This document shows, in pieces, positions 2,043 through 60,605 of a stretch of DNA of 64,000 bases. A program made the translations under genes and the position numbers. Each line of letters starts with the position of its first letter. The stretch's first letter is position 1. Source of the DNA: Desulfomonilia bacterium. Lineage in GTDB: Bacteria > Desulfobacterota > Desulfomonilia > UBA1062. The notes below the pieces were generated by a model that made no database searches, was not told the origin of the DNA, and was given only the letters and a program-made list of their open reading frames with translations. The stretch covers positions 640,001-704,000 of the forward strand of contig CAXXDQ010000007.1 of NCBI GenBank assembly GCA_963664325.2, given 5' to 3'.

Positions 2043-2722
2043 GGCATCGTTCTCCCGACTCCAGCTATAAAGACTTTATCAGCACCCGCTTTTTTAAGAG
2101 CAAAGGCAGCAGCTCCCGCTGTCTCTGCTGTTGTGATAACATCATCAACAACCAAAACGTTGAGTCCTTTCACCCCCTTTGCCAGAAAAGACCCTTTAAT
2201 GTTTTTGCGTCTTGCTTTCCTATCCAGGCCGGCCTGGGGTCTTGTACCCCTAGTCTTCACCAGGGTATGAAAATCAGCTTTTATTCCGGTACGCTTTGCC
2301 AGTTCTTTTGCTATTAATGCAGACTGGTTATAACCTCTAACGAACAGCCTTGTCCAGTGCATTGGGATAAACGTGATGACATCAGGTTTGATATCCGCTT
2401 TAATGACAGATTCGTGAATGATTTTTCCAAAATACCTTTTAAGTCCAGTTTTGCCCCTGTATTTATATGCATGTATCGCCTCCTTTGTTTTTCCGTCGAA
2501 TATAAATGCAGCAACGATTTTATCAAAGAACGGCGTGTTGCTGAGGCACGACAGACAAATCCCTGAAGTGCCGGTTGGCCGGCCGCAAACATCACAGACA
2601 GGCTCGGGCACATTTTTCATCTGAATTCTACAATTATTACAAACCCCCTCTTCAATCTCTTCTTCCGCTGCGCATATAAGGCATCCGGGAGGAAAAAGAC
2701 TGTCAATTAACCGGTTCAGCAT
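2036..2722 (-). CDS. comF: ComF family protein (zinc ribbon + phosphoribosyltransferase-like)
   Basis: Four CxxC pairs, RGYNQS, VLVVDDVITT PRPP-loop motif. Confidence 0.9.
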   Translation of the reverse strand: MLNRLIDSLFPPGCLICAAEEEIEEGVCNNCRIQMKNVPEPVCDVCGRPTGTSGICLSCLSNTPFFDKIVAAFIFDGKTKEAIHAYKYRGKTGLKRYFGKIIHESVIKADIKPDVITFIPMHWTRLFVRGYNQSALIAKELAKRTGIKADFHTLVKTRGTRPQAGLDRKARRKNIKGSFLAKGVKGLNVLVVDDVITTAETAGAAAFALKKAGADKVFIAGVGRTMPW

Positions 2723-14872: not shown

Positions 14873-17053
14873 ATGGCTATTTCTTACGATAAAGATAAGG
14901 GTATTTTCAAACTCAGGGCAGGCACATCAGACTATATAATGAAAACAGCATGGGGTGATCTCGTACACCTCTACTGGGGAAAAACGGTAACTGACGCCGA
15001 TCTCTCGCCGTTCATACGTCAGGCGATAAGGGTCTACTCGCCGGACACGCATCCGGGAGAATTCGTATCGTACGACTTTCTGCCGCTCGAATACCCGTTC
15101 TACGGCACTGGCGATTTCAGGCAGCCCGCGTTTCAGGTGCAAACCGCGGACGGCTACAGGCTGACCGAGCCTAAATATCAGGCTCACAGAATCATAAAGG
15201 GCAAACCCGCTCTTGTTGGCCTGCCTTCAACCTATGTTGAAAACGATGATGAGGCCGAAACCCTTATAATCGACATGTACGACCCGCTTATCAGATTGAA
15301 GGTCGAACTGACTTATACAGCTTTTGAAAAGTACAACGCCATTGCACGCTCGGTAAAATTCATCAACGAGAGCGATGCAAAGGTCAAGCTTATGAGGGCG
15401 CTTTCCTTCAGCATCGATTTCATGAAATGCGACTACGATATGCTTCAGCTTTCCGGCTCGTGGGGCCGCGAGCGGCATATACACAAGAGGCCGCTCGTTC
15501 CGGGCACCCATTCCATAGAGAGCAGACGCGGCGTGAGCAGCCACCAGCAGAACCCGTTCATCGCCCTGCTCGACAAAGACGCAGGCGAGGACAACGGCAG
15601 CGTCTACGGCTTTTCTCTCGTATACAGCGGATCTTTCCTGGGCTCGGTCGAAGTTGAACAGTATGACTATGCCAGGGTCGCCATGGGCATAAACCCGTTT
15701 GATTTCGGCTGGACACTCGATCCGGGTGAAAGCTTCCAGGCGCCAGAGGCGATTCTTGTATATTCCGGCACCGGACTCACCGGCATGTCGCAGACATACC
15801 ACGGGCTTTATTCGAAAAGTCTCTGCAGAGGCGTTTACAGGGACAGGGAGCGGCCGGTATGCATAAACAACTGGGAGGCCACTTACTTCGCGTTCAACGA
15901 GGAGCATCTCGTTGCCATAGCTGCCGACTTCAAGGAACTGGGTGCCGAGATTTTCGTAGTTGACGACGGGTGGTTCGGAAAGAGGGACGACGACTCGTCC
16001 TCTCTTGGCGACTGGTTCGTCAATAAGGATAAGCTGCCCGGCGGACTCAAATCCCTCGGAGAAAAGGTCCTTGCCCTGGGCATGGAGTTCGGTGTCTGGG
16101 TCGAGCCGGAGATGATATCGAAGAACAGCGAACTCTACCGCGCACATCCGGACTGGTGCATACACGCGCCGGGCAGGAGGCAGACCGAATCCCGCAACCA
16201 GCTCGTCCTGGACCTGTCCCGTGCCGACGTATGCGAATACGTGACAAGCGTGCTCAGCGAGGTATTTTCAAGCGCGCCGATCACATATGTCAAGTGGGAC
16301 ATGAACAGGAGCCTTACGGAAATAGGTTCCGCCCTGGCGTCGCCCGAACGTCAGATCGAGACGGCGCACCGCTTTGTCCTTGGTCTTTACAGCATACTCG
16401 AAACACTTACGGCGAAATTCCCTGGCATTCTTTTCGAGAGCTGCGCCAGCGGCGGCGGCAGGACCGACCCCGGCATGTTGGCATACATGCCGCAGACGTG
16501 GATAAGCGACGACACCGATGCATTCGAGCGCATAAAGATACAGCACGGCACCAGCATCATATATCCGCCGATAAGCATCGAAGTGCATGTCTCGGCGTCG
16601 CCCAACCATCAGATACACCGGATGACCCCCATGATGACGCGCCTGCATGCAGGCATGGCCGCCAACTTCGGCTTCGAGATTGACGCATCCAAACTTACCG
16701 CTCAGGAAAGGGATCTGATAAAGGCGAACATCGCCCTTTACAAGGAGATCAGGCCGATAATCCAGTTCGGCGGCTTCTTCAGGCTCTTAAGCCCGTTCGA
16801 TGGAAACGAGACCGCCTGGATATACGTCACAGAAGACAGGGAAAAGGCCGTGCTCTTCTATTTCAAGAAAACGGCGGGCGCGCATGAGCCGTTCAAGACC
16901 TTAAGGCTGAAGGGGCTCGCGCCGGACAAGAGATACACCCTCGTAGGCCTTGGCCAGTCCTTCAGCGGAGACACTCTAATGAATGCAGGCATCAACACCC
17001 CCGGCGTGATAGGCGATTTCGGCAGTTCGATGATCCGGCTGTACAGCGAATGA
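14873..17053 (+). CDS. Alpha-galactosidase, GH36
   Basis: NNWEATYF, VVDDGWFG, FGVWVEPEM, YVKWDMNR, FESCASGGGR, WISDDTD. Confidence 0.96.
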   Translation: MAISYDKDKGIFKLRAGTSDYIMKTAWGDLVHLYWGKTVTDADLSPFIRQAIRVYSPDTHPGEFVSYDFLPLEYPFYGTGDFRQPAFQVQTADGYRLTEPKYQAHRIIKGKPALVGLPSTYVENDDEAETLIIDMYDPLIRLKVELTYTAFEKYNAIARSVKFINESDAKVKLMRALSFSIDFMKCDYDMLQLSGSWGRERHIHKRPLVPGTHSIESRRGVSSHQQNPFIALLDKDAGEDNGSVYGFSLVYSGSFLGSVEVEQYDYARVAMGINPFDFGWTLDPGESFQAPEAILVYSGTGLTGMSQTYHGLYSKSLCRGVYRDRERPVCINNWEATYFAFNEEHLVAIAADFKELGAEIFVVDDGWFGKRDDDSSSLGDWFVNKDKLPGGLKSLGEKVLALGMEFGVWVEPEMISKNSELYRAHPDWCIHAPGRRQTESRNQLVLDLSRADVCEYVTSVLSEVFSSAPITYVKWDMNRSLTEIGSALASPERQIETAHRFVLGLYSILETLTAKFPGILFESCASGGGRTDPGMLAYMPQTWISDDTDAFERIKIQHGTSIIYPPISIEVHVSASPNHQIHRMTPMMTRLHAGMAANFGFEIDASKLTAQERDLIKANIALYKEIRPIIQFGGFFRLLSPFDGNETAWIYVTEDREKAVLFYFKKTAGAHEPFKTLRLKGLAPDKRYTLVGLGQSFSGDTLMNAGINTPGVIGDFGSSMIRLYSE

Positions 17054-17064
17054 AAGGTGAAACG

Positions 17065-18036
17065 ATGAAACTTAAATTATCGGTGTTCCTCGGCAATGCA
17101 GGTTCGTGTTCTGACAGGTTCTGCTCGGCCTACGGCAGGCCGTATTCGACAGAGGAGCTTTTTGAAAGGGTCGCGTCTGTGGACGGCATTACCGGTGTGG
17201 ATCTCGTAGGCACTGATGACATCCTTGATAATCTTGATAAGGTGAAAGCCTGCCTCAAGCGCACCGGCCTTTCGGTCGTATCCATTGTGCCGGACCTGTT
17301 TTCTCCGGCCGTATTCAGGCAGGGCACATACTCTTCCATCGACAGGGCGGTCCGCAGCGAGGCGATCGCACATACCAAAAGGGTGATCGATGCAGCCTCG
17401 GAACTCGGCTGCAGCCTTGTCGCCCCATGGCCCGGCCAGGACGGTTATGACTATCTCTTTCAGTCCGACTACGAAACTGAGCGTACGCTTTTCGAAGAGG
17501 CCGTAAAGGAGCTGTGCGATTACAACAGGGATATCAGGATCGGCCTCGAATACAAACCCAAGGAACCGCGCAACCGCTGCTATGCAAGCACAGCGGCCGT
17601 AACGCTCCTGATGCTCATGCAAACCGGCGCCGCCAACTGCGGAGTGGTGCTCGACTACGGCCACGCCCTTTACGCCTATGAAAATCCGGCCGAGGTTGTG
17701 GCGCTCCTACACAAGTACGGCGACAGGCTTATGCACATCCATATCAACGACAACTACCGCTACTGGGACGACGATATGATAGCGGGCAGCGTACATACGC
17801 TCGAATACCTGGAATTCTTCTACTGGCTCAGGCGAACGGACTATTCCGGGTGGGTCACAATCGATCAGTTCCCTTACAGGGAGGACGGCCGGGACGCCAT
17901 TTCAGAGAGCGCCGCATGGCTTACAAAATTTCATGAGATAATTGAAAAGACGGACGCCCAAAAAATCGAAGCAGTATTCAAGAAAAAGGACGCCATCGCA
18001 TCTAGTCGCTTCATGCGCGAGCTGCTTTTCGGATAG
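17065..18036 (+). CDS. Xylose-isomerase-like TIM-barrel sugar isomerase/epimerase
   Basis: WPGQDGYDY, LEYKPKEPR, LDYGH, HIHIND, WDDD, DQFP metal-binding motifs; alternative start 17050. Confidence 0.85.
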   Translation: MKLKLSVFLGNAGSCSDRFCSAYGRPYSTEELFERVASVDGITGVDLVGTDDILDNLDKVKACLKRTGLSVVSIVPDLFSPAVFRQGTYSSIDRAVRSEAIAHTKRVIDAASELGCSLVAPWPGQDGYDYLFQSDYETERTLFEEAVKELCDYNRDIRIGLEYKPKEPRNRCYASTAAVTLLMLMQTGAANCGVVLDYGHALYAYENPAEVVALLHKYGDRLMHIHINDNYRYWDDDMIAGSVHTLEYLEFFYWLRRTDYSGWVTIDQFPYREDGRDAISESAAWLTKFHEIIEKTDAQKIEAVFKKKDAIASSRFMRELLFG

Positions 18037-18083
18037 ACTGCTAAAGTGCAACGGCATATTATAAGCTTTAATGGAGGTGGAAC

Positions 18084-18302
18084 ATGGCTCAGGCAAGCAT
18101 TGCTTTACGCATACCAGAAGAAGTCAATAAAACCCTTGAGCAATATGCCAAGCTAATTGATCGTCCAAAGGTCTGGCTCATAAAAAAAGGGATCGACGCC
18201 ATCATTCAGGAAATGGAGGACTTGTCGATAGCTAATGCTAGGCTGAATGACCCTCACTCCGAGTACAGGGATTTCGATGAAATCAGGAAAGAATTAAGCT
18301 GA
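18084..18302 (+). CDS. Ribbon-helix-helix antitoxin-like protein with no adjacent toxin
   Basis: RBS GGAGGTGG; SIALRIPEEVNKTLEQYAK RHH pattern; acidic tail EDLSIANARL...DFDEIRKEL. Confidence 0.75.
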   Translation: MAQASIALRIPEEVNKTLEQYAKLIDRPKVWLIKKGIDAIIQEMEDLSIANARLNDPHSEYRDFDEIRKELS

Positions 18303-18344
18303 ACAAATATTAAATAAAGAATTTAACATTGAAGGAAATACAAC

Positions 18345-19028
18345 ATGAGTTATTCTAAAACCATTGTGTGTTTGGCCAACTCATCAAAATCAAATGAAGC
18401 TTGTGTTGCTGGCAAAGTAATTGAATCAGGTAATATTAGAGAATGGCTTAGACCTGTAAGTTCAAGAACAACTCAGGAAATATCAAAAAGAGAAAGATCA
18501 TTTAAAAATGGTTCGGAGATTAGTCTTCTTGATATTGTAACAATAGGTTTTGAAAAGCCTATTCAAGTATCTCATCAGTCCGAAAATCACCTAATAGAAG
18601 CTGGAATTAAATGGGAAAAGATTGGTATTTATGAATGGGCAAATATCCCCAAGCTAGTTGATAATCCTGACACACTATGGAGCAATAGTGATAGTAGCAA
18701 GCATGGGTTGAACAATCGGCTAACTGTTGAAGAGGCAAAACTATTCAATTGTTCACTCTACTTGGTCTATGTTGATAAGGTAGAATTGAATATTTGTCCA
18801 AAAGCACCACAATTTGGTGATATGAAAAGAATTATTCTGGCTAGTTTTAAGTATAAGAATTGTTCATATCGAATTGATGTAAAAGACCCCTATTTTTATC
18901 AGCGAGATGATGGGAAATATATTACAGAATCAGCTTATCTATGTATAAGTCTTACTGAACCATATAAAAAAGATGGGTTATGTTACAAGATCATTGCCGC
19001 GATTTTTTATGAGGAGCGGTTCAAATGA
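18345..19028 (+). CDS. Dual OB-fold-like protein of the type found with DUF488 genes
   Basis: KTIVCLANSSK...CVAG, WLRPVS, HQSENH, CISLTEPY...CYKIIAAI; AT-rich. Confidence 0.7.
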   Translation: MSYSKTIVCLANSSKSNEACVAGKVIESGNIREWLRPVSSRTTQEISKRERSFKNGSEISLLDIVTIGFEKPIQVSHQSENHLIEAGIKWEKIGIYEWANIPKLVDNPDTLWSNSDSSKHGLNNRLTVEEAKLFNCSLYLVYVDKVELNICPKAPQFGDMKRIILASFKYKNCSYRIDVKDPYFYQRDDGKYITESAYLCISLTEPYKKDGLCYKIIAAIFYEERFK

Positions 19029-19624
19029 ATAATATCATTTATACAATCGGGCATTCGAATCATTCGACTGAACAATTCATCGGATTATTGAAGCGCCATG
19101 GAATAACCGCCGTTGCAGATGTCCGGTCGCATCCAGTAAGCCGCCATAATCCCCAGTTCAACCGTGAATCACTTGAAAAGGATTTGAAGCAAACAGGAAT
19201 AGCCTATGTATTTTTAGGCAAGGAACTCGGCGCAAGAAGTGAAAACAAAAATTGCTATGTTGATGGAAAGGTTCAATATGAGCTTCTTTCCCGTGAACCT
19301 CTTTTTAAAGAAGGGATTGAACGTATTCTCAAGGGAATAGAAAAATACCGTATTGCCCTGTTGTGTGCGGAAAAAGACCCTTTGAATTGCCACCGTACAT
19401 TTCTAGTCGGGAACAGCCTGCGTAGGCTTGGCGTTGAAATAACCCATATCCTTGCAAATGGTGAACTGGAAACTCAGCTTGAAGCTGAAAAAAGACTTTT
19501 AAAACAACTTAAAATGCACGAGGAAAATCTGATTGAAAGCCGGGATGATATTCTGATGAAGGCTTTTGCGATTCAGTCCGGAAGGATCGCCTATAAAGCT
19601 CATACACCAACCGCAGGAAGATAG
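19025..19624 (+). CDS. DUF488 family protein
   Basis: IYTIGHSNH, ADVRSHPVS, YVFLGKELGAR, LLCAEKDPLNCHR. Confidence 0.9.
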   Translation: MNNIIYTIGHSNHSTEQFIGLLKRHGITAVADVRSHPVSRHNPQFNRESLEKDLKQTGIAYVFLGKELGARSENKNCYVDGKVQYELLSREPLFKEGIERILKGIEKYRIALLCAEKDPLNCHRTFLVGNSLRRLGVEITHILANGELETQLEAEKRLLKQLKMHEENLIESRDDILMKAFAIQSGRIAYKAHTPTAGR

Positions 19625-19636
19625 AAGGTATATATA

Positions 19637-20071
19637 ATGAAACTATTTACAATCGGATTTACTAAAAAGAACGCGAAAGAATTTTTTACGCTGCTTAAAC
19701 GCTCTGGTGTCAAACGCCTGATTGATATCCGACTTAATAATGTTTCGCAGCTTGCCGGATTCACGAAAAAGGATGACCTTAAATATTTTCTGAAAGAGAT
19801 TTGCAACATTGATTATATCCACATGCCCGAACTGGCGCCGACGCAGGAGATTCTTGATGCATTTAAAAAGAACGGCGGCGACTGGAACGATTACGAGAAG
19901 TCGTTCAAAGAACTGATGTCTAAAAGACAAATCGAAAACCTCGTAACACCCGAACTCATAGACAATGCCTGCTTGCTTTGCAGCGAAGCCACACCCGAGC
20001 ACTGTCACCGCCGTCTTGTTGCAGAATATCTTGCTAAGAAGTGGGATAATATTGAAATATTAAATTTGTAA
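19637..20071 (+). CDS. DUF488 family protein (short subtype)
   Basis: LFTIGFTKK, IDIRLNNVSQLAGF, ELAPT, LLCSEATPEHCHRR. Confidence 0.9.
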   Translation: MKLFTIGFTKKNAKEFFTLLKRSGVKRLIDIRLNNVSQLAGFTKKDDLKYFLKEICNIDYIHMPELAPTQEILDAFKKNGGDWNDYEKSFKELMSKRQIENLVTPELIDNACLLCSEATPEHCHRRLVAEYLAKKWDNIEILNL

Positions 20072-20086
20072 TAAGGAAATAAACAA

Positions 20087-20659
20087 ATGGATGTAACTAA
20101 ATATCCTGATAGTATAGAAAAAATAAAATCTTTATATGATAAAATTAAAAGTTGTAATTTATCAGAAATTGATACTCAAGTCTTACTGATTGAACCTGTC
20201 TTGGTTCTTTGTGGTTGGGATATCTTTGATCCAAACTCTTTAAAACGTGCGAATAGGAGTGCCAAAAATCATCAATTTGATATTGAAATATATAATGATG
20301 AAAAAATGTTCATAGCTATTGAATGCAAATCCCTTTCAAGTAAAGAATTTAATATTGGAAAAATCAAATCAAGGAATGGGATTGGTAAACTAATAGAAAA
20401 ACCAAGGAAGTGGAAAAATAAAGATAAAGATGGAACTGGCCAACTAAGAGCTTACTGTTCCAATTATAGTCAATATGATGATTCTACTTTGGCCGTATTA
20501 ACAAATGGTTTCGATTGGGTTATATTCGATCATGATAAATTTACTCGAGAAGAAAACCTACTCAAGCCAATTGATAGTGATTGTATTGCTGCACATAATA
20601 ATTTGAATGATTCATGTTTCGAAACTCAAATAATTGCAAAGTTAAAGAAACCAAATTGA
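20087..20659 (+). CDS. Stand-alone PD-(D/E)xK nuclease resembling the type I HsdR N-terminal domain
   Basis: EIDTQ..LIEPVL..CGWD, FDIEI, IAIECKS, GQLRAY, AVLTNGFDW; AT-rich. Confidence 0.72.
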   Translation: MDVTKYPDSIEKIKSLYDKIKSCNLSEIDTQVLLIEPVLVLCGWDIFDPNSLKRANRSAKNHQFDIEIYNDEKMFIAIECKSLSSKEFNIGKIKSRNGIGKLIEKPRKWKNKDKDGTGQLRAYCSNYSQYDDSTLAVLTNGFDWVIFDHDKFTREENLLKPIDSDCIAAHNNLNDSCFETQIIAKLKKPN

Positions 20660-20663
20660 GTTT

Positions 20664-20696
20664 GTAGATTAGGCTGAGTCGAAGATAAAGCCCAAC
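20664..20696 (+). repeat. Degenerate GTAG-type REP-like palindrome at the cassette's right boundary
   Basis: GTAG followed by imperfect inverted repeat TTAGGCT...AGCCCAA; one copy in the window. Confidence 0.35.
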
Positions 20697-20729
20697 ATGG
20701 GATTTATATATTGATAGGAGATCTAACTT

Positions 20730-21326
20730 ATGCTCGAAGAATCAAAGAAACTGGTGCTTGAGATTGCTAAGCTGGTGTGGGAGAGAAGACTCTCCGATAC
20801 GGCGGGCGGAAACATAAGTATACGCGAAGGTGATTTGGTATGCTGCACGCCCAGGCTTATGGGCTACAGGCTCCGCTGGCAGATAAAGGATGCAGACCTG
20901 TCCGTTGTCGACCTCGACGGAAACGTGCTCGAAGGGCCAAAGCAGATAACCCGCGAAGGCAGGCTCCATCTGGCGCTTTATAAAGAGTTTCCCGAGGCGC
21001 ATGCCGTCATACATGCGCACCCGTACTGGACCAACGTGTTTGTCGCAAAGGCAAAGCCCATCGTCCCAAGACTCGAAACCACTGAAAAGTTCGGCACCAT
21101 CGGATGCGCTAAGGAGGCACATGGCTATTCGGAAGAGCTGGTCGAAAGCGTGTTAGGCCATTTCAGGGAAAAGAAGGCTCAATGGGAGAAAAGCCCTCTT
21201 ATGGCCATCATGCCGCGCCATGGCATTATTGCGGTAGGCAGGGATATGAATGCTTGCTTCGACATCGTCGACAGGATAGAAACCGAATGCCGCTGCCAGA
21301 TTCTGGGAAAGCTGCTTGATCTATGA
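20730..21326 (+). CDS. Class II aldolase/adducin family protein (FucA-like)
   Basis: GGNISIR, EGRLHLALY, HAHP and HG zinc ligands. Confidence 0.9.
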   Translation: MLEESKKLVLEIAKLVWERRLSDTAGGNISIREGDLVCCTPRLMGYRLRWQIKDADLSVVDLDGNVLEGPKQITREGRLHLALYKEFPEAHAVIHAHPYWTNVFVAKAKPIVPRLETTEKFGTIGCAKEAHGYSEELVESVLGHFREKKAQWEKSPLMAIMPRHGIIAVGRDMNACFDIVDRIETECRCQILGKLLDL

Positions 21327-22246
21327 TACTTGCCGTAACGCTGAATCCTGCAATCGATTTCACGGTCTTTGGGAGTAACTTCAAGACCGGAACCACAAAC
21401 CGCGGACAGGATGTCTTCCCCGATGCAGGAGGCAAGGGAAACAATGCAGCCAGGATTGCAAAGCTTCTCGGAACAGGTGTCATGGTTACGGGTTTTCTGG
21501 GCGGCTTTACGGGCGACTTTATCACCTCGGAATTGGAGCGTGAAGGAATCCGGACGGCATTTTATCGTATAAACGAACTGACCCGCATCACGCTTGCCTA
21601 TGTTGACAGCATTACCAGCAGCGAAACAAAGGTGGTGCCGTTCGGGCCAAAGATTTCAGCACAACAGGCCGATGCCTTCTGCAGGCACTTTGAAGAGCTT
21701 CTGATTGAAAATGATTTTTCAATAGTTGCATTATGCGGATCGCTCGCAAACGGCCTGGATGACGACTACTATTCAAGGCTGATTGTTATTGCAGGAAACC
21801 ATGACGTCCCTGTTGTGCTTGATACGAGCGGTCAGGCATTGAAAAAGGGAATTGATTCCTCGCCGTTCATGATAAAACCAAACATGGAAGAAGCATCCGA
21901 ACTCGCGGGATTAAGCTCAATAAGTGAAATCACAGCCTTCATGCAAGAGCTTGCATCTAAGGTAGGAACAGTGGCACTTACGTTGGGTAAAGAAGGTGCA
22001 GCCTTTATCACAACTGAGCATGTTACGAAAGTGAGCGTATCAGGGATTAAGTCCATCAATCCGGTGGGCGCGGGAGATGCATTTATCGGAGGCTTCCTGG
22101 CAGCATATGATAAATTCGGCGCGGATCGTGAAAAGCTTTATTCCTGGGCCGCATCTGCTTCGGCATGCACGGCACAGTCAGAGGGCCTTCTCTGGCCTCC
22201 GGAGATGTTTACCGAAACACTTGAAAAGGTCTGTATCAAAATTTGA
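21323..22246 (+). CDS. PfkB family kinase (1-phosphofructokinase/tagatose-kinase-like)
   Basis: VTLNPAID, AGGKGNN, DTSG, IKPNMEE, VGAGDAF. Confidence 0.92.
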   Translation: MILAVTLNPAIDFTVFGSNFKTGTTNRGQDVFPDAGGKGNNAARIAKLLGTGVMVTGFLGGFTGDFITSELEREGIRTAFYRINELTRITLAYVDSITSSETKVVPFGPKISAQQADAFCRHFEELLIENDFSIVALCGSLANGLDDDYYSRLIVIAGNHDVPVVLDTSGQALKKGIDSSPFMIKPNMEEASELAGLSSISEITAFMQELASKVGTVALTLGKEGAAFITTEHVTKVSVSGIKSINPVGAGDAFIGGFLAAYDKFGADREKLYSWAASASACTAQSEGLLWPPEMFTETLEKVCIKI

Positions 22247-57436: not shown

Positions 57437-57838
57437 TCAATCTTTCCAGTCTTCGATCTTCAAGTTGCTGATTCTGGAGAATTCACTTGTATTATTGGTT
57501 ACAAGGGTGAGGTCTCTAGCCATTGCCTGTGCGGCGATCAGCATGTCATAAGGCCCGATAAGCTTCCCTTCCCTTTTCAATTGGGCCCGTATAACGCCGA
57601 AATATTCCGCATCGATACCATCGAAATCAATTAGCTCGAAAGGCGCCAGGAGCTCTGTCAGTGATATCCTGTTTTTCTCAATATTCCGGCTGTTGTAGAC
57701 ACCGAACTGCAATTCAGCAACCGTTATGCTGGAGATACATACGTTGTCCTCTATAACGCTCTCAAGCCTTTTAAGCACATTGAGAGGTTTCCTGTTTATT
57801 ATGTAAATGCAGATGTTTGTATCTAGCAGATACATCAC
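57437..57838 (-). CDS. vapC: VapC PIN-domain toxin
   Basis: YLLDTNICI, ISSITVAEL, GPYDMLIAAQA, LVTNNTSEF. Confidence 0.95.
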   Translation of the reverse strand: MMYLLDTNICIYIINRKPLNVLKRLESVIEDNVCISSITVAELQFGVYNSRNIEKNRISLTELLAPFELIDFDGIDAEYFGVIRAQLKREGKLIGPYDMLIAAQAMARDLTLVTNNTSEFSRISNLKIEDWKD

Positions 57839-58065
57839 AGACCTTTTCTTTTCTGCATTCCGGGCTGCTTTCTTCCATCCTCCATGAAATCGCCGGTAAA
57901 GCTGTCAAGCCCGTGAAGGAATGTTTCCCAAACCTTGTCTCTTGGAAATATGATTACCGCATCCCCTACTTTCTGAACCAGTACGTCATTTCCTTCGAAC
58001 TTGCATTCTTTAGGCAAACGCACCGCCTGGCTGCGCCCGTTCTGAAATAATTTCGCTGTCAGCAT
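57835..58065 (-). CDS. vapB: VapB antitoxin (AbrB/MazE type)
   Basis: AKLFQNGRSQAVRLPKE; RBS GGAGGTGG before ATG 58065; overlaps vapC. Confidence 0.93.
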   Translation of the reverse strand: MLTAKLFQNGRSQAVRLPKECKFEGNDVLVQKVGDAVIIFPRDKVWETFLHGLDSFTGDFMEDGRKQPGMQKRKGL

Positions 58066-58081
58066 ATCCACCTCCGGTTTG

Positions 58082-58110
58082 GATATATACCTCGGTATAT
58101 ATCTTGTCAA
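58082..58110 (-). promoter_or_regulatory. vapBC promoter with operator palindrome
   Basis: Perfect inverted repeat GATATATACC-TC-GGTATATATC (58082-58103) directly after minus-strand TTGACA. Confidence 0.75.
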
Positions 58111-58535
58111 TACAAACACCACGGCTTGCCTTACGAGTAAAGCAAGAATTGAATCTTGCTGGTTCAAAAACCTCAATGCGTCATAACAAGATATTTTTTT
58201 GCAGTTTTGCCAGAAAGGCTTTTAGTGCAAATTTGAGGAAGAGACCTAAAAATTTATTTGCAGGTTTAAGTTATGTAGTTAGGAACGTTCCTACATTGCT
58301 TCCCAAATAGAGTAGAGTATGGACCAAAATGTGTAAGGCCTTGAAATGCGCTCAATGTCTACATCCCGGGAGAAACTTACTTCTTCTTCAGGAACTGCCT
58401 TTTAGATGATTATCAGGCCTTGAAATGGGACAATTGGTTGATTTGTCAAGGTTAAAGGCCTGACACCTTTAGGTCTGTTGGGGAAAGGTCAAGTACCGTT
58501 CACGTCAAGGTCTGACCCGTTTGGTTCTTGAGTTA

Positions 58536-59558
58536 TCATGAATCTAACTTTATTTTAATTTGAGTATTCTTGCTATATATCTTTACCTGTAGCCAAGATT
58601 CTAAACTACTACATTTTTTTTCTAAATCATTAATGTTTAGCTTCGAACCAGATGCAACAGATAATTTTATTTCGTCTTTGGAACAGTCAAACAAAATATT
58701 CTTTAATATTTTTAAATTGGAGTATCCTTTAGCACCATATAGTTTTATTGGGTCAATTGTATCGACTAATCCAAGTAAAAATAAAAGAGGAGCCTCTTCT
58801 GAAGAAATAGGCATGTGATTAATTAAGCAATCAAGATTATATCCCTCATAAATTTTCTTCATATTACTACCAGCAAACCATATATTATGAGTTGCAATGG
58901 TAGCTCCTGCTAAGGCATATTCGTCGTCTAAATCATCTCCCCAGTAGAAAACATTATCATTTCCATTCCTTCGAAAAAGTCTATTTTTTACAAGCATGTC
59001 ATATAAGTACATCCCAGCGACTATTCCATGATCAATTTCTTTGCGTTCAGTTAGTTTATATAAAAAATAGTTGCTGATATTCTTATAAAGATCTTTTGGA
59101 ATGTTATTAGGATTTTTATCTAATAAATAATGTTCTACTTCAAAATATCTTCTAAGACTATCAATATCCTTTATTTTTGATGAATATTTTCTACTATTCT
59201 TTTCATAATCGTACCCAAAATCATGAAAAAGACAAGTTAGAAACCACAGAAATGGAAAATCAATTCTATTCAGGTTTCTTCCCCCACACATTTTTTGTTT
59301 AATTATTGAGTTATGATAAATAAGTATGCCAATAAAAAAAATGGAAACTGTATGTTTACTTCTATGCAAAAGGCTATTCTTGATAGTAAAATATTCTTTA
59401 AAAATACCCCCTTTCCCTCCTCTTTTAAAATAGTTTTTTATAAATTCTCCTTGATTACTGTTTTTTAAGATTGGGTTATCTAAACTAATAGAAGGGTTAT
59501 AATAGTAATTCCATTGGTTCGATGGAATTTCACTGATTCTATCAAAAAGACTTTTCAT
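58536..59558 (-). CDS. HD-domain metal-dependent phosphohydrolase-like protein, AT-rich
   Basis: HRSKH, LFHDFGY, DHG, THN, LVDTID motifs. Confidence 0.72.
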   Translation of the reverse strand: MKSLFDRISEIPSNQWNYYYNPSISLDNPILKNSNQGEFIKNYFKRGGKGGIFKEYFTIKNSLLHRSKHTVSIFFIGILIYHNSIIKQKMCGGRNLNRIDFPFLWFLTCLFHDFGYDYEKNSRKYSSKIKDIDSLRRYFEVEHYLLDKNPNNIPKDLYKNISNYFLYKLTERKEIDHGIVAGMYLYDMLVKNRLFRRNGNDNVFYWGDDLDDEYALAGATIATHNIWFAGSNMKKIYEGYNLDCLINHMPISSEEAPLLFLLGLVDTIDPIKLYGAKGYSNLKILKNILFDCSKDEIKLSVASGSKLNINDLEKKCSSLESWLQVKIYSKNTQIKIKLDS

Positions 59559-59702
59559 AATTTAATAGGATACCTTCAACTTCTTCCAATTAATTTAGTA
59601 AACTTTAAAACATAGAACCATAGGTGGCACTGATGCTTAAATTACTTATCTGCTAAAATTAATTAAGCTATATGTTTATCAATGCCCTTTCATTTCTCCC
59701 TG

Positions 59703-60605
59703 TTAGGACATTAGCGACGCTAAGGTCGGTAAATATGGAGCTACAATAGGACCAAATATCTGTATATGATCTGCCAAAAGCGAGATAAACTTTTGGTAGT
59801 GCTCCTTGAAACCTTCAGTACCCTGAGTTGACCTCATTTCTTCAACAGTCGCCGCAAATTTTGATATTATTGTTTTATCTTCACTAGATTCAGTCAGAGA
59901 GTTTAACAAGCCTGTAAACAATTTTTCATTTTCAGTTTTGCTTATTGCCTTCTGCTTTACGTTGGTGTTACCTGTGGCAACATTTTGCACATTCCCTGCA
60001 ATATAGGTATTAAATATTTGATGAACTTTTTCTTGTGGCACTGGATTTGAATTGACAGGAGCTTCACCAGCAGTGGGTGATTCTGTCTCGATTTCTAGTA
60101 CAAAATTTAAAACTCTATTTCTTACTGCATCAAGCGCTGCAACAATTGCAGATTTAGGAATAACTTTCCATGCCTGCATGCAGTTCATTCCTTCATATAT
60201 ATTTTGACCTACATACAAAACTAAATCTGGATTCCATTGTTCTTGAAGAGTACCAGTACCACTTTCGGAATCTCTTATAAGCGACTCCATAGAGGCTATA
60301 GGTTGAGTTAAATATGAATGGGATAGTTTCTTATGGAACTCTTTGGGAATGCAGGACAAAGGAATATCCGCATTACGTAACCCAGATTGAAATGGGCCAG
60401 AAAAATGTCCTTTGGAATTAACATTCAAAATACGATAATCCGGCAAGTTTTCAATATCGGCATATCCGCTTAATTCATTTTCCACCCATTGTTTAAACTC
60501 CGGGTTTCCTAAACGAGCTGCAAGGACTTTGCATTTCCTGAGCAATAACGCCAAATCTGTATTTGAATCAATCGCAGCATTCTGTATTTCTCGTAATAGA
60601 GACAT
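59703..60605 (-). CDS. AbiTii-like N-terminal domain protein
   Basis: LLREIQNAAID...LLLRKCKVLAARL...WVENELSGY....LPDYR. Confidence 0.78.
   Translation of the reverse strand: MSLLREIQNAAIDSNTDLALLLRKCKVLAARLGNPEFKQWVENELSGYADIENLPDYRILNVNSKGHFSGPFQSGLRNADIPLSCIPKEFHKKLSHSYLTQPIASMESLIRDSESGTGTLQEQWNPDLVLYVGQNIYEGMNCMQAWKVIPKSAIVAALDAVRNRVLNFVLEIETESPTAGEAPVNSNPVPQEKVHQIFNTYIAGNVQNVATGNTNVKQKAISKTENEKLFTGLLNSLTESSEDKTIISKFAATVEEMRSTQGTEGFKEHYQKFISLLADHIQIFGPIVAPYLPTLASLMS

Follow-up and report, generated by a model that had tools for sequence, protein, structure and literature searches.

A catalogued candidate defence trio and an apparently independent nuclease in place of relE in a sugar operon of a Desulfomonilia bacterium

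Principal finding

In the genome of a Desulfomonilia bacterium, the toxin gene relE of a toxin-antitoxin pair lying within a sugar operon has been replaced by four foreign genes, behind a retained relB antitoxin gene. The cargo is very probably made up of two parts that do not belong together: a trio encoding a DuOB protein and two DUF488 proteins (hereafter DUF488-B and DUF488-C), which matches the candidate defence system PDC-M45, and a nuclease gene with no conserved link to it. The initial annotation of this DNA had put the genes forward as a candidate for a new system. To judge by its matches to sequence profiles, the trio is instead an already catalogued, though uncharacterised, candidate. 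I lean towards a fuller reading, in which a defence trio that processes DNA ends and an independent nuclease occupy the place of relE.

The resident site and its replacement

The window, by which I mean the whole 64,000-nt stretch of DNA analysed, carries five co-oriented ORFs between a xylose-isomerase-like gene and a class II aldolase gene (Table 1). All five had been regarded as one AT-rich cassette inserted into the sugar operon. The insertion is confirmed, since DNA similarity to congeners stops at 18293 and returns at 20716-20730, and so are the co-orientation and the low GC of the four genes enclosed. The first gene (GC 0.44), however, is resident in all three congeners. The GC contents of the genes for DuOB, DUF488-B, DUF488-C and the nuclease are 0.34, 0.42, 0.41 and 0.29, as against 0.54 and 0.53 in the flanks, and the segment 18345-20659 as a whole (GC 0.360) has a value equally low in 1.3% of 8578 genome segments of the same size. 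At third codon positions, GC is 0.19 in the nuclease gene, 0.47 in the adjacent DUF488 gene and 0.25 in the DuOB gene. As initially described, the DuOB gene overlaps the first DUF488 gene, by 4 nt; 12 nt separate the two DUF488 genes, and gaps between the co-oriented genes are 12-15 nt, with a ribosome-binding site before each gene.

Table 1. Features of the replaced site and its flanks, in window coordinates.
Feature	Position	Strand	Profile match
Left flank: xylose-isomerase-like TIM barrel, resident sugar operon	17050..18036	+	PF01261, E 9.6e-31
Resident RelB-type antitoxin, 72 aa, outside the insertion	18084..18302	+	NF048017, 34.3 bits
Relic of the overlapping start of relE: six codons and a stop; left replacement junction	18277..18297	+	
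DuOB tandem OB-fold protein, 227 aa (PDC-M45A); predicted DNA binder	18345..19028	+	PF22557, E 8.5e-59
DUF488-B, TIGHS type, 199 aa (PDC-M45B); predicted cysteine phosphatase-like enzyme	19025..19624	+	PF04343, E 5.4e-27
DUF488-C, TIGFTK type, 144 aa (PDC-M45C)	19637..20071	+	PF04343, E 1.9e-27; PF22751, E 2.2e-12
Stand-alone HsdR-N-like PD-(D/E)xK nuclease (predicted), 190 aa	20087..20659	+	HSDR_N, E 1.2e-4, below cut-off
Single degenerate GTAG-led palindrome near the right junction	20664..20697	+	
Right flank: class II aldolase, resident sugar operon	20730..21326	+	PF00596, E 8e-31

The site in relatives, where the initial annotation proposed to look for an empty site, holds an intact relBE pair. 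The order isomerase-relB-relE-short ORF-aldolase is found in all three congeners, with the isomerase-like gene at 89-90% and the aldolase gene at 92-94% identity, and the retained antitoxin gene shares 79-82% identity with the one that precedes relE in each of them. The antitoxin's score against NF048017 is below the cut-off of 50, while the congener RelE passes the cut-off of TIGR02385 (37.5 bits against 27.9). The six-codon remnant is in the same frame as the N-terminus of congener relE. A tblastn search gave no relE match at the window site, and DUF488 was not found in any of the three congeners. The 51-aa ORF that follows relE in one congener (G002) has no Pfam or plasmid match; its start looks Sir2-like.

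The palindrome near the right junction, which I take to be REP-like, has no second copy in the genome even when up to 8 mismatches are allowed, and the 70-nt intergenic stretch containing it folds no better than its shuffles (z -1.2 and -1.9). Counts of promoters and terminators at the locus are at chance level (12 vs 9.2 and 3 vs 2.0, respectively). Single public contigs from two runs, possibly of the very sample that yielded the window and so not independent of it, span 17745-21800 with no differing letters. Within the window there are no other defence genes near the site, the nearest clear PADLOC match being an AbiTii-like gene 39 kb away.

Identity and distribution of the trio

The domain calls of the initial annotation (dual-OB, DUF488 and HsdR-N-like) are borne out by Pfam and PADLOC matches. 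A PADLOC search without hits would have spoken for novelty; hits were obtained for all three proteins of the trio. DuOB matches PDC-M45A with E 3.2e-74 over residues 1-225 of 227, and DUF488-B and DUF488-C match PDC-M45B (E 5e-85) and PDC-M45C (E 2.9e-75) over nearly their full lengths. The three matches occur in gene order, adjacent and on a single strand, an assignment made with the HMMs of PADLOC-DB v2.0.0 alone.

The PDC set, whose members are predictions, comes from Payne et al. (2024, bioRxiv 10.1101/2024.01.29.577857), in the main text of which 'M45' does not occur. A literature search, with the supplements of that preprint outside its scope, found neither an experimental test of PDC-M45 nor a paper naming it; a study testing eight other candidates (PMC12881386) does not include it. 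Among the papers listed on DUF488 and on DuOB, DUF4326, RapZ-C or PF22557, none concerns the trio, to judge by titles or the starts of abstracts. In the DefensePredictor supplements, PDC-M45 appears 0 times and DUF488 13 times in one file, at least two of these in a neighbours sheet. The DUF488 fusion of the ParB-CTPase preprint was considered as a match for the trio and set aside, being a different DUF488 fusion.

DuOB is present in 16 of 401 genomes of the phylum. The trio genes prove to be linked in most of these: of the 15 other DuOB genomes, 13 have both DUF488 types adjacent, one has a single type at a contig end and one has none. Their loci include two inside Hma loci, one with an Hma-like helicase/methylase on one side and an IrrE peptidase together with E2-E1-JAB genes on the other, and five DuOB-RecQ fusions. 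Thus only 3 of the 15 lie in defence systems, several others being among housekeeping genes, and these are raw counts of defence context. The 12 DuOB loci on viral contigs comprise six trios, five combinations of DuOB, DUF488 and mSLOG-DUF4326, and one fragment; two of the six trios sit between pglX and pglZ of BREX, and three (two of them near-duplicates) adjoin HTH+IrrE genes. Four plasmid loci, from 20 matches, include one beside CBASS with HTH+IrrE and one inside a CRISPR locus. The defence context first suggested for the whole cassette is supported for its three-gene core by these Hma, BREX, CRISPR and CBASS neighbours elsewhere.

The trio also varies in composition. mSLOG-DUF4326 stands in place of DUF488-B at six loci, the B and C types of DUF488 are fused in P0038, P0058 and P0089, and broken copies are frequent in relatives (L065, L066, L067, L069). 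L060, L078, L082/L083 and plasmid H1 have HTH+IrrE regulators or an IrrE peptidase as neighbours, and L085 has umuDC-like genes. No DuOB was found in 50,697 annotated phages, and a genome-contig search with a single DuOB protein returned one weak partial match.

Predicted folds and conserved residues of the trio

DuOB appears to resemble tandem-OB DNA binders. Its model (pLDDT 93.6) matches CST and HIN domains in Foldseek (E 2e-4 to 1e-3), and residues 1-96 score Z 7-7.8 against PriB/RPA/SSB in VIA; by sequence, its profile finds no relative in PDB.

The C-x-E...CHR motif noted initially in both DUF488 proteins is invariant: C114, E116 and C122-H123-R124 of DUF488-B in an alignment of 116 sequences, and C115, E117 and C123-H124-R125 of DUF488-C in 13 of 13. 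In the model of DUF488-B (pLDDT 88.2), C114 ends the strand 110-114 and H123-R124 start the helix 123-134. The phosphatase-like fold suggested for DUF488 is tentatively supported by this model, which in VIA matches KAP phosphatase (Z 8.0, rmsd 3.9, 128 aligned) and laforin (Z 7.8), although the scores of the many PTP/DSP matches are middling (Foldseek best E 1.5e-3) and tied with methylases, such as CbiF (Z 8.9, rmsd 2.8, 109 aligned). Sequence searches found no PDB relative of DUF488-C and no solved DUF488 structure. DUF488 and DUF4326 are reportedly a branch within the rhodanese-phosphatase superfamily, according to Burroughs and Aravind in 2023. A further source places DUF4326 in that superfamily and proposes that it processes ribose-linked terminal phosphates (PMC9503650).

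Positions 168-170 of DUF488-B read [DSN][LM]F in 94 of 115 homologues, a motif that I take to resemble the sliding-clamp motif and that is degenerate in the window copy (D168N, F170I). The window copy departs from conserved columns at 7 of 77 in DUF488-B and 5 of 45 in DuOB, differences matched in extent by 12% of homologues, and because of them a slow decay of the trio is possible.

The solo nuclease

The nuclease is a predicted PD-(D/E)xK enzyme that looks intact. Its key residues are E27 (62/62), D65 (61/62), E79 (61/62), K81 (62/62), Q119 (62/62) and Y123 (54/62), and none of 25 conserved columns is changed. It had been described as stand-alone, which is correct: its neighbours are DUF488 and the aldolase, with no methylase or helicase beside it. 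In Atlas, the first match is at 0.95 and the cluster has HSDR_N on 16% of its members; the family takes in 49 clusters at E up to 1e-30, and 45 of the next 47 best representatives are shorter than 265 aa. By sequence, the profile finds no relative in PDB, and none was confirmed among 41 viral-contig candidates.

The view that the nuclease is the effector of the trio is not supported, for want of conserved linkage. The nuclease profile is found at none of 31 other DuOB loci, and the DuOB and DUF488 profiles at none of 11 other nuclease loci, these being ten from metagenomes and that of G270, the one other full-length nuclease among 400 genomes, which lacks a DuOB match. Six of the ten metagenome loci are on contigs shorter than 3.2 kb, and members of the nuclease family are uncommon, so that a small sub-lineage linking the trio and nuclease could be missed.

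Three relatives of the nuclease look like integron cassettes. An attC-like hairpin follows the stop codon at three of nine nuclease loci (z -3.5 to -5.4), one of them beside an integron integrase; the sites were picked by eye after a stricter pattern gave none, making the count post hoc. The attC-like stretch of L090 was not above shuffles (z -0.7). No such hairpin was detected on either strand of 17900-20900 by a purpose-written scan, which likewise failed to pick up L048, and the 95.6% complete genome has no TIGR02249 match (integron integrase) over the cut-off. Integron cassettes are a known store of anti-phage genes, and the nuclease may on that account be considered a single-gene defence candidate.

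Proposed function and alternatives

Embedding of the trio in Hma, BREX and CRISPR loci makes an anti-phage role, in my judgment, somewhat more likely than not. DuOB would bind exposed DNA, and the DUF488 pair, likely cysteine phosphatase-like, would act at DNA ends by removing or transferring phosphate-linked groups, a chemistry I put forward tentatively, at a little under an even chance. C114 and C115 would serve as nucleophiles and the arginine of CHR would hold the phosphate, while the natural fusions suggest a B-C heterodimer. The DuOB-RecQ fusions and the CapH/CapP-like regulators point to action at forks, gaps or breaks, CapH/CapP being described as responding to ssDNA and DNA damage (10.1101/2022.04.27.489752). 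Interchange with mSLOG-DUF4326 suggests phosphate or ADP-ribose-type chemistry. The solo nuclease would likely cut incoming DNA on its own, and two independent arrivals of defence cargo at the site are likely.

The same RecQ fusions (5 of 15 phylum loci), together with the HTH+IrrE, IrrE or umuDC-like neighbours and the clamp-like motif, would also suit a trio with an accessory part in DNA repair or fork protection instead of an anti-phage one, the nuclease being still a passenger. DuOB would then bind ssDNA, the DUF488 pair would clean blocked ends or adducts, and the trio would travel among defence genes, repairing the damage that they or stress inflict. I regard this as unlikely, though a serious contender. 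A patchy presence (16/401), many broken copies, a low GC and insertion between Hma and BREX core genes are what defence cargo typically shows; CapH/CapP have immune operons under their control as well, according to the same report, and the clamp-like motif is degenerate here.

That the four genes form one recently assembled PDC-M45 variant, with DuOB as sensor, the DUF488 pair for modification or signalling and the nuclease as effector, I consider improbable. The close spacing with ribosome-binding sites, the junctions enclosing all four genes, the intact nuclease and the varying extra partners of the trio elsewhere (RecQ, mSLOG-DUF4326) speak for it; against it are the nuclease's absence from DuOB loci and the trio's from nuclease loci, the integron-like single-gene cassettes, and the GC3 contrast between nuclease and neighbouring DUF488, though DuOB is low too. 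Equally a long shot is that PDC-M45 captured an integron-type solo nuclease as effector and took over the relBE promoter, with DuOB binding phage DNA, the DUF488 pair editing the ends of that DNA and the nuclease cutting what has been so marked; were it true, the trio would gain its first direct nuclease output, and a toxin slot would be seen put to new use for expressing defence cargo. Still less probable is that the cargo, lying at a recombination hot spot, is decaying and has neither function nor present benefit. The ORF lost or truncated at the same site in congeners, the loss of relE, the mild drift of DUF488-B and DuOB and the broken copies in relatives would fit, but none of the four frames is interrupted or shortened, and every invariant catalytic-type residue is kept.

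To return to the trio with an unlinked nuclease, the trio is a widespread candidate whose copy here is compact and intact, and because the nuclease is unlinked, the locus adds no new architecture. With its relatives the nuclease makes up a small family of HsdR-N-like proteins that stand alone and appear sometimes to move as integron cassettes, and the site shows relE swapped for defence-type cargo behind a kept antitoxin.

Comparison with known systems

As in PDC-M45 of PADLOC, all three components are full length, adjacent and co-oriented, and related copies lie inside Hma and BREX loci, such embedding being how PDCs were defined. The copy here differs in its place, downstream of an orphan relB within a sugar operon, and in being followed by a solo nuclease, which follows no other examined copy.

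The DUF488 proteins may resemble the rhodanese-phosphatase superfamily, in that the model of DUF488-B matches PTP/dual-specificity phosphatases and tetrapyrrole-type methylases (Z 7-8.9) and its conserved Cys would end a strand, succeeded by a loop and then an Arg-bearing helix. Unlike classical PTP and dual-specificity phosphatases, their loop is C-x-E-x5-C-H-R (C-x9-R, with two Cys and a His) rather than C-x5-R, for which reason I would say that DUF488 works like, not that it is, a classical PTP; alternatively, the His and both Cys may serve in metal binding or redox chemistry.

The nuclease shares with HsdR N-termini of type I restriction-modification (PF04313/PF13588) an invariant or nearly invariant E...D...E-x-K plus Q-x3-Y, with weak HSDR_N matches. 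It is unlike type I systems in being about 190 aa and stand-alone, with no helicase, HsdM or HsdS nearby, and in behaving as a mobile single gene. Finally, the site recalls RelBE/ParDE type II toxin-antitoxin systems in that congeners hold an intact pair there, whereas the window keeps the antitoxin and only six codons of the toxin's start.

The DuOB, DUF488-B and DUF488-C genes

The three genes that follow the antitoxin gene match Pfam DuOB and DUF488 and, over nearly their full length, PADLOC PDC-M45A, B and C. The initial annotation had put the trio forward as part of a new system and proposed the PADLOC check; judged by these matches, the trio is a further copy of the catalogued candidate system PDC-M45. 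The PDCs (phage-defence candidates) are 145 candidates predicted because they lie inside BREX, DISARM and type I R-M loci and proposed by their authors for future study (10.1101/2024.01.29.577857). The main text of that paper, as distinct from its supplements, does not mention M45 by name, and a literature search found no paper naming PDC-M45.

DuOB is present in 16 of 401 phylum genomes, the window's included, and both DUF488 types adjoin it at 13 of the other 15 loci; the exceptions have neither type in one case and, at a contig end, a single type in the other. By raw count, Hma loci enclose DuOB at two of the 15, at one it has an Hma-like helicase/methylase on one side and IrrE together with E2-E1-JAB genes on the other, and five have it fused to RecQ helicase, which may lie on either its N- or C-terminal side (L059, L061, L062, L063, L066). 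Around the remaining copies are toxin-antitoxin, transposase or housekeeping genes. Twelve viral-contig loci comprise six trios, five with an mSLOG-DUF4326 fusion for DUF488-B, and one fragment (raw counts); BREX pglX and pglZ flank the trio in two. Four of 20 plasmid matches were examined: one trio is next to CBASS, with HTH+IrrE, another close to a very large SNF2-type gene and a third within a CRISPR locus, while the fourth is the mSLOG-DUF4326 variant. In the variant module (L076, L077, L081, L085, L086, L088) the fusion gene lies 3' of DUF488-C; the L085 copy adjoins umuDC-like genes. One homologue (P0015, 308 aa) has the DUF488-B sequence tandemly duplicated (its two copies 63% and 49% identical to the gene of the window), which may be an artefact of assembly.

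The insertion site

As initially described, five ORFs separate the isomerase from the aldolase, DuOB overlaps the first DUF488 gene (by 4 nt), and both DUF488 proteins carry C-x-E...C-H-R motifs. The AT-richness is also borne out: the last four genes (18345-20659) have a GC content of 0.360, the genome mean being 0.479, and 1.3% of 8578 genome windows reach so low a value. They have no paralogues elsewhere in this genome.

The same sugar operon is present in three genomes of the genus, all with the order isomerase, antitoxin gene, overlapping RelE/ParE toxin gene, short ORF, aldolase. The window's antitoxin gene is 79-82% identical to theirs, and the toxin, examined in one congener (G002), matches PF05016 and TIGR02385 above cut-off. 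DNA similarity ends at 18293, with six codons of the toxin start retained, and restarts at 20716-20730; no DUF488 was detected in the three congeners (93-97% complete). Because of this gene order, these breakpoints and the absence of DUF488, the antitoxin gene is resident and the other four genes occupy the position of relE. The supposed five-gene inserted cassette is thereby reduced to four genes replacing relE, and in place of the empty site expected in relatives, all three have a relB-type antitoxin gene and relE. By parsimony, relE was probably lost in the window's lineage.

The short ORF 3' of relE is truncated in G002 and similar in the other two congeners; it has no database match. Its start looks Sir2-like. 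The truncation suggests that the site was previously occupied by other cargo. Upstream of relB the window has diverged from its congeners, also within a short palindrome that could be the operator.

Coordinates of features (window positions unless a locus is named)
Feature	Position	Strand	Remark
RelB-type antitoxin	18084-18302	+	
DuOB	18345-19028	+	
DUF488-B	19025-19624	+	
DUF488-C	19637-20071	+	
HsdR-N-like nuclease (predicted)	20087-20659	+	
Diverged relB upstream region	18034-18083		
Sigma-70-like site	18034-18062		9/12 match; such matches at chance level overall
AT-rich 10-bp inverted repeat, relB-duOB gap	18296-18344		z -3.1, only -3 kcal/mol
Second low-GC patch	57437-60605	-	
AbiTii-like gene	in 57437-60605	-	PADLOC E 1.9e-47
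340-aa ORF, GC 0.28	in 57437-60605	-	no PADLOC or NCBIfam match
VapC toxin and small upstream ORF	in 57437-60605	-	NF047863 above cut-off
Short ORF 3' of relE (G002)	L021:11487-11642		
Trio inside Hma (hmaB-hmaC)	L057:687-9296; L069		
Trio inside BREX (pglX-pglZ)	L079:2181-12353; L080		
attC-like hairpin/integron features of nuclease relatives	L046:977-1034, 1626-1686; L047:1742-1800; L048:571-1797, 2565-2635		

The nuclease

The last gene fits a predicted HsdR-N-like PD-(D/E)xK nuclease: of 62 sequences, 54-62 retain E27, D65, E79-x-K81 and Q119-x3-Y123. Its family is small: a word search gave 13 proteins and a full profile search 49 clusters (E up to 1e-30), nearly all of about 130-260 aa.

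The initial annotation made this nuclease the effector of the module. Its profile has no match in 31 DuOB loci other than the window's, of which 15 come from genomes, 12 from viral contigs and 4 from plasmids. Conversely, the DuOB and DUF488 profiles have no match in ten metagenome nuclease loci, a weaker test in that six are short contigs, nor at the locus in G270, the sole other full-length copy among 400 genomes. The linkage fails both ways. Neighbours of the nuclease relatives differ: a HipA pair, a TPR protein, ankyrins, WYL, a transposase. Very probably, then, this is a catalogued candidate system beside a chance neighbour; a single four-gene system, of which there is no second example, is improbable.

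An AAC...GTT hairpin directly follows the nuclease stop codon in three of nine loci examined downstream (z -5.4, -3.5 and -4.3). L046 has an additional upstream hairpin (z -4.0), the L048 nuclease is divergent to an integron integrase, and at L090 the boxes are present but z is -0.7. The first three loci resemble cassettes of integrons, and such cassettes reportedly store anti-phage genes (10.1101/2024.07.02.601686). No such hairpin was found at the window nuclease (17900-20900, both strands) by a home-made scan that also missed L048, and no integron integrase scored above cut-off in the window's genome (95.6% complete). These cassette-like relatives would make up a single-gene integron cassette family, apparently without a name so far, and a cheap anti-phage candidate.

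Possible activity and comparison with known proteins

The DuOB model (pLDDT 93.6) most closely resembles tandem-OB DNA binders (CST, HIN domains, RPA, PriB, SSB), and the protein would bind exposed DNA. DUF488-B and -C are fused in three of the best 120 homologues, which suggests a heterodimer; the pair would use their cysteines C114 and C115 to remove or transfer a phosphate-linked group on DNA ends. This activity would serve anti-phage defence, the nuclease working independently, and may be DNA-damage-induced in copies with CapH/CapP-like regulators (10.1101/2022.04.27.489752). The main rival is that the trio performs accessory DNA repair, as the RecQ fusions and the DNA-damage regulators near some copies would favor; I consider it rather unlikely.

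DUF4326, which can stand in for DUF488-B at the mSLOG-DUF4326 loci, is described as a clade of the rhodanese-phosphatases, with a proposed role in the processing of ribose-linked terminal phosphates (PMC9503650). Of 115 DUF488-B homologues, 94 have a clamp-like [DSN][LM]F motif, which is degenerate in the window copy. Burroughs and Aravind, in 2023, reportedly placed DUF488 in the clade of DUF4326 and predicted DNA-end processing in conflict systems.

The phosphatase likeness proposed initially gains some support from the model. In the DUF488-B model (pLDDT 88.2), which has PTP/dual-specificity phosphatases and tetrapyrrole methylases as its structural neighbours with a middling Z of 7-8.9, C114 ends a strand and H123-R124 opens the next helix, the same position as in the phosphatase P-loop. 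The DUF488 loop, however, is C-x9-R, unlike that of classical PTPs, which rules out their being classical PTPs.
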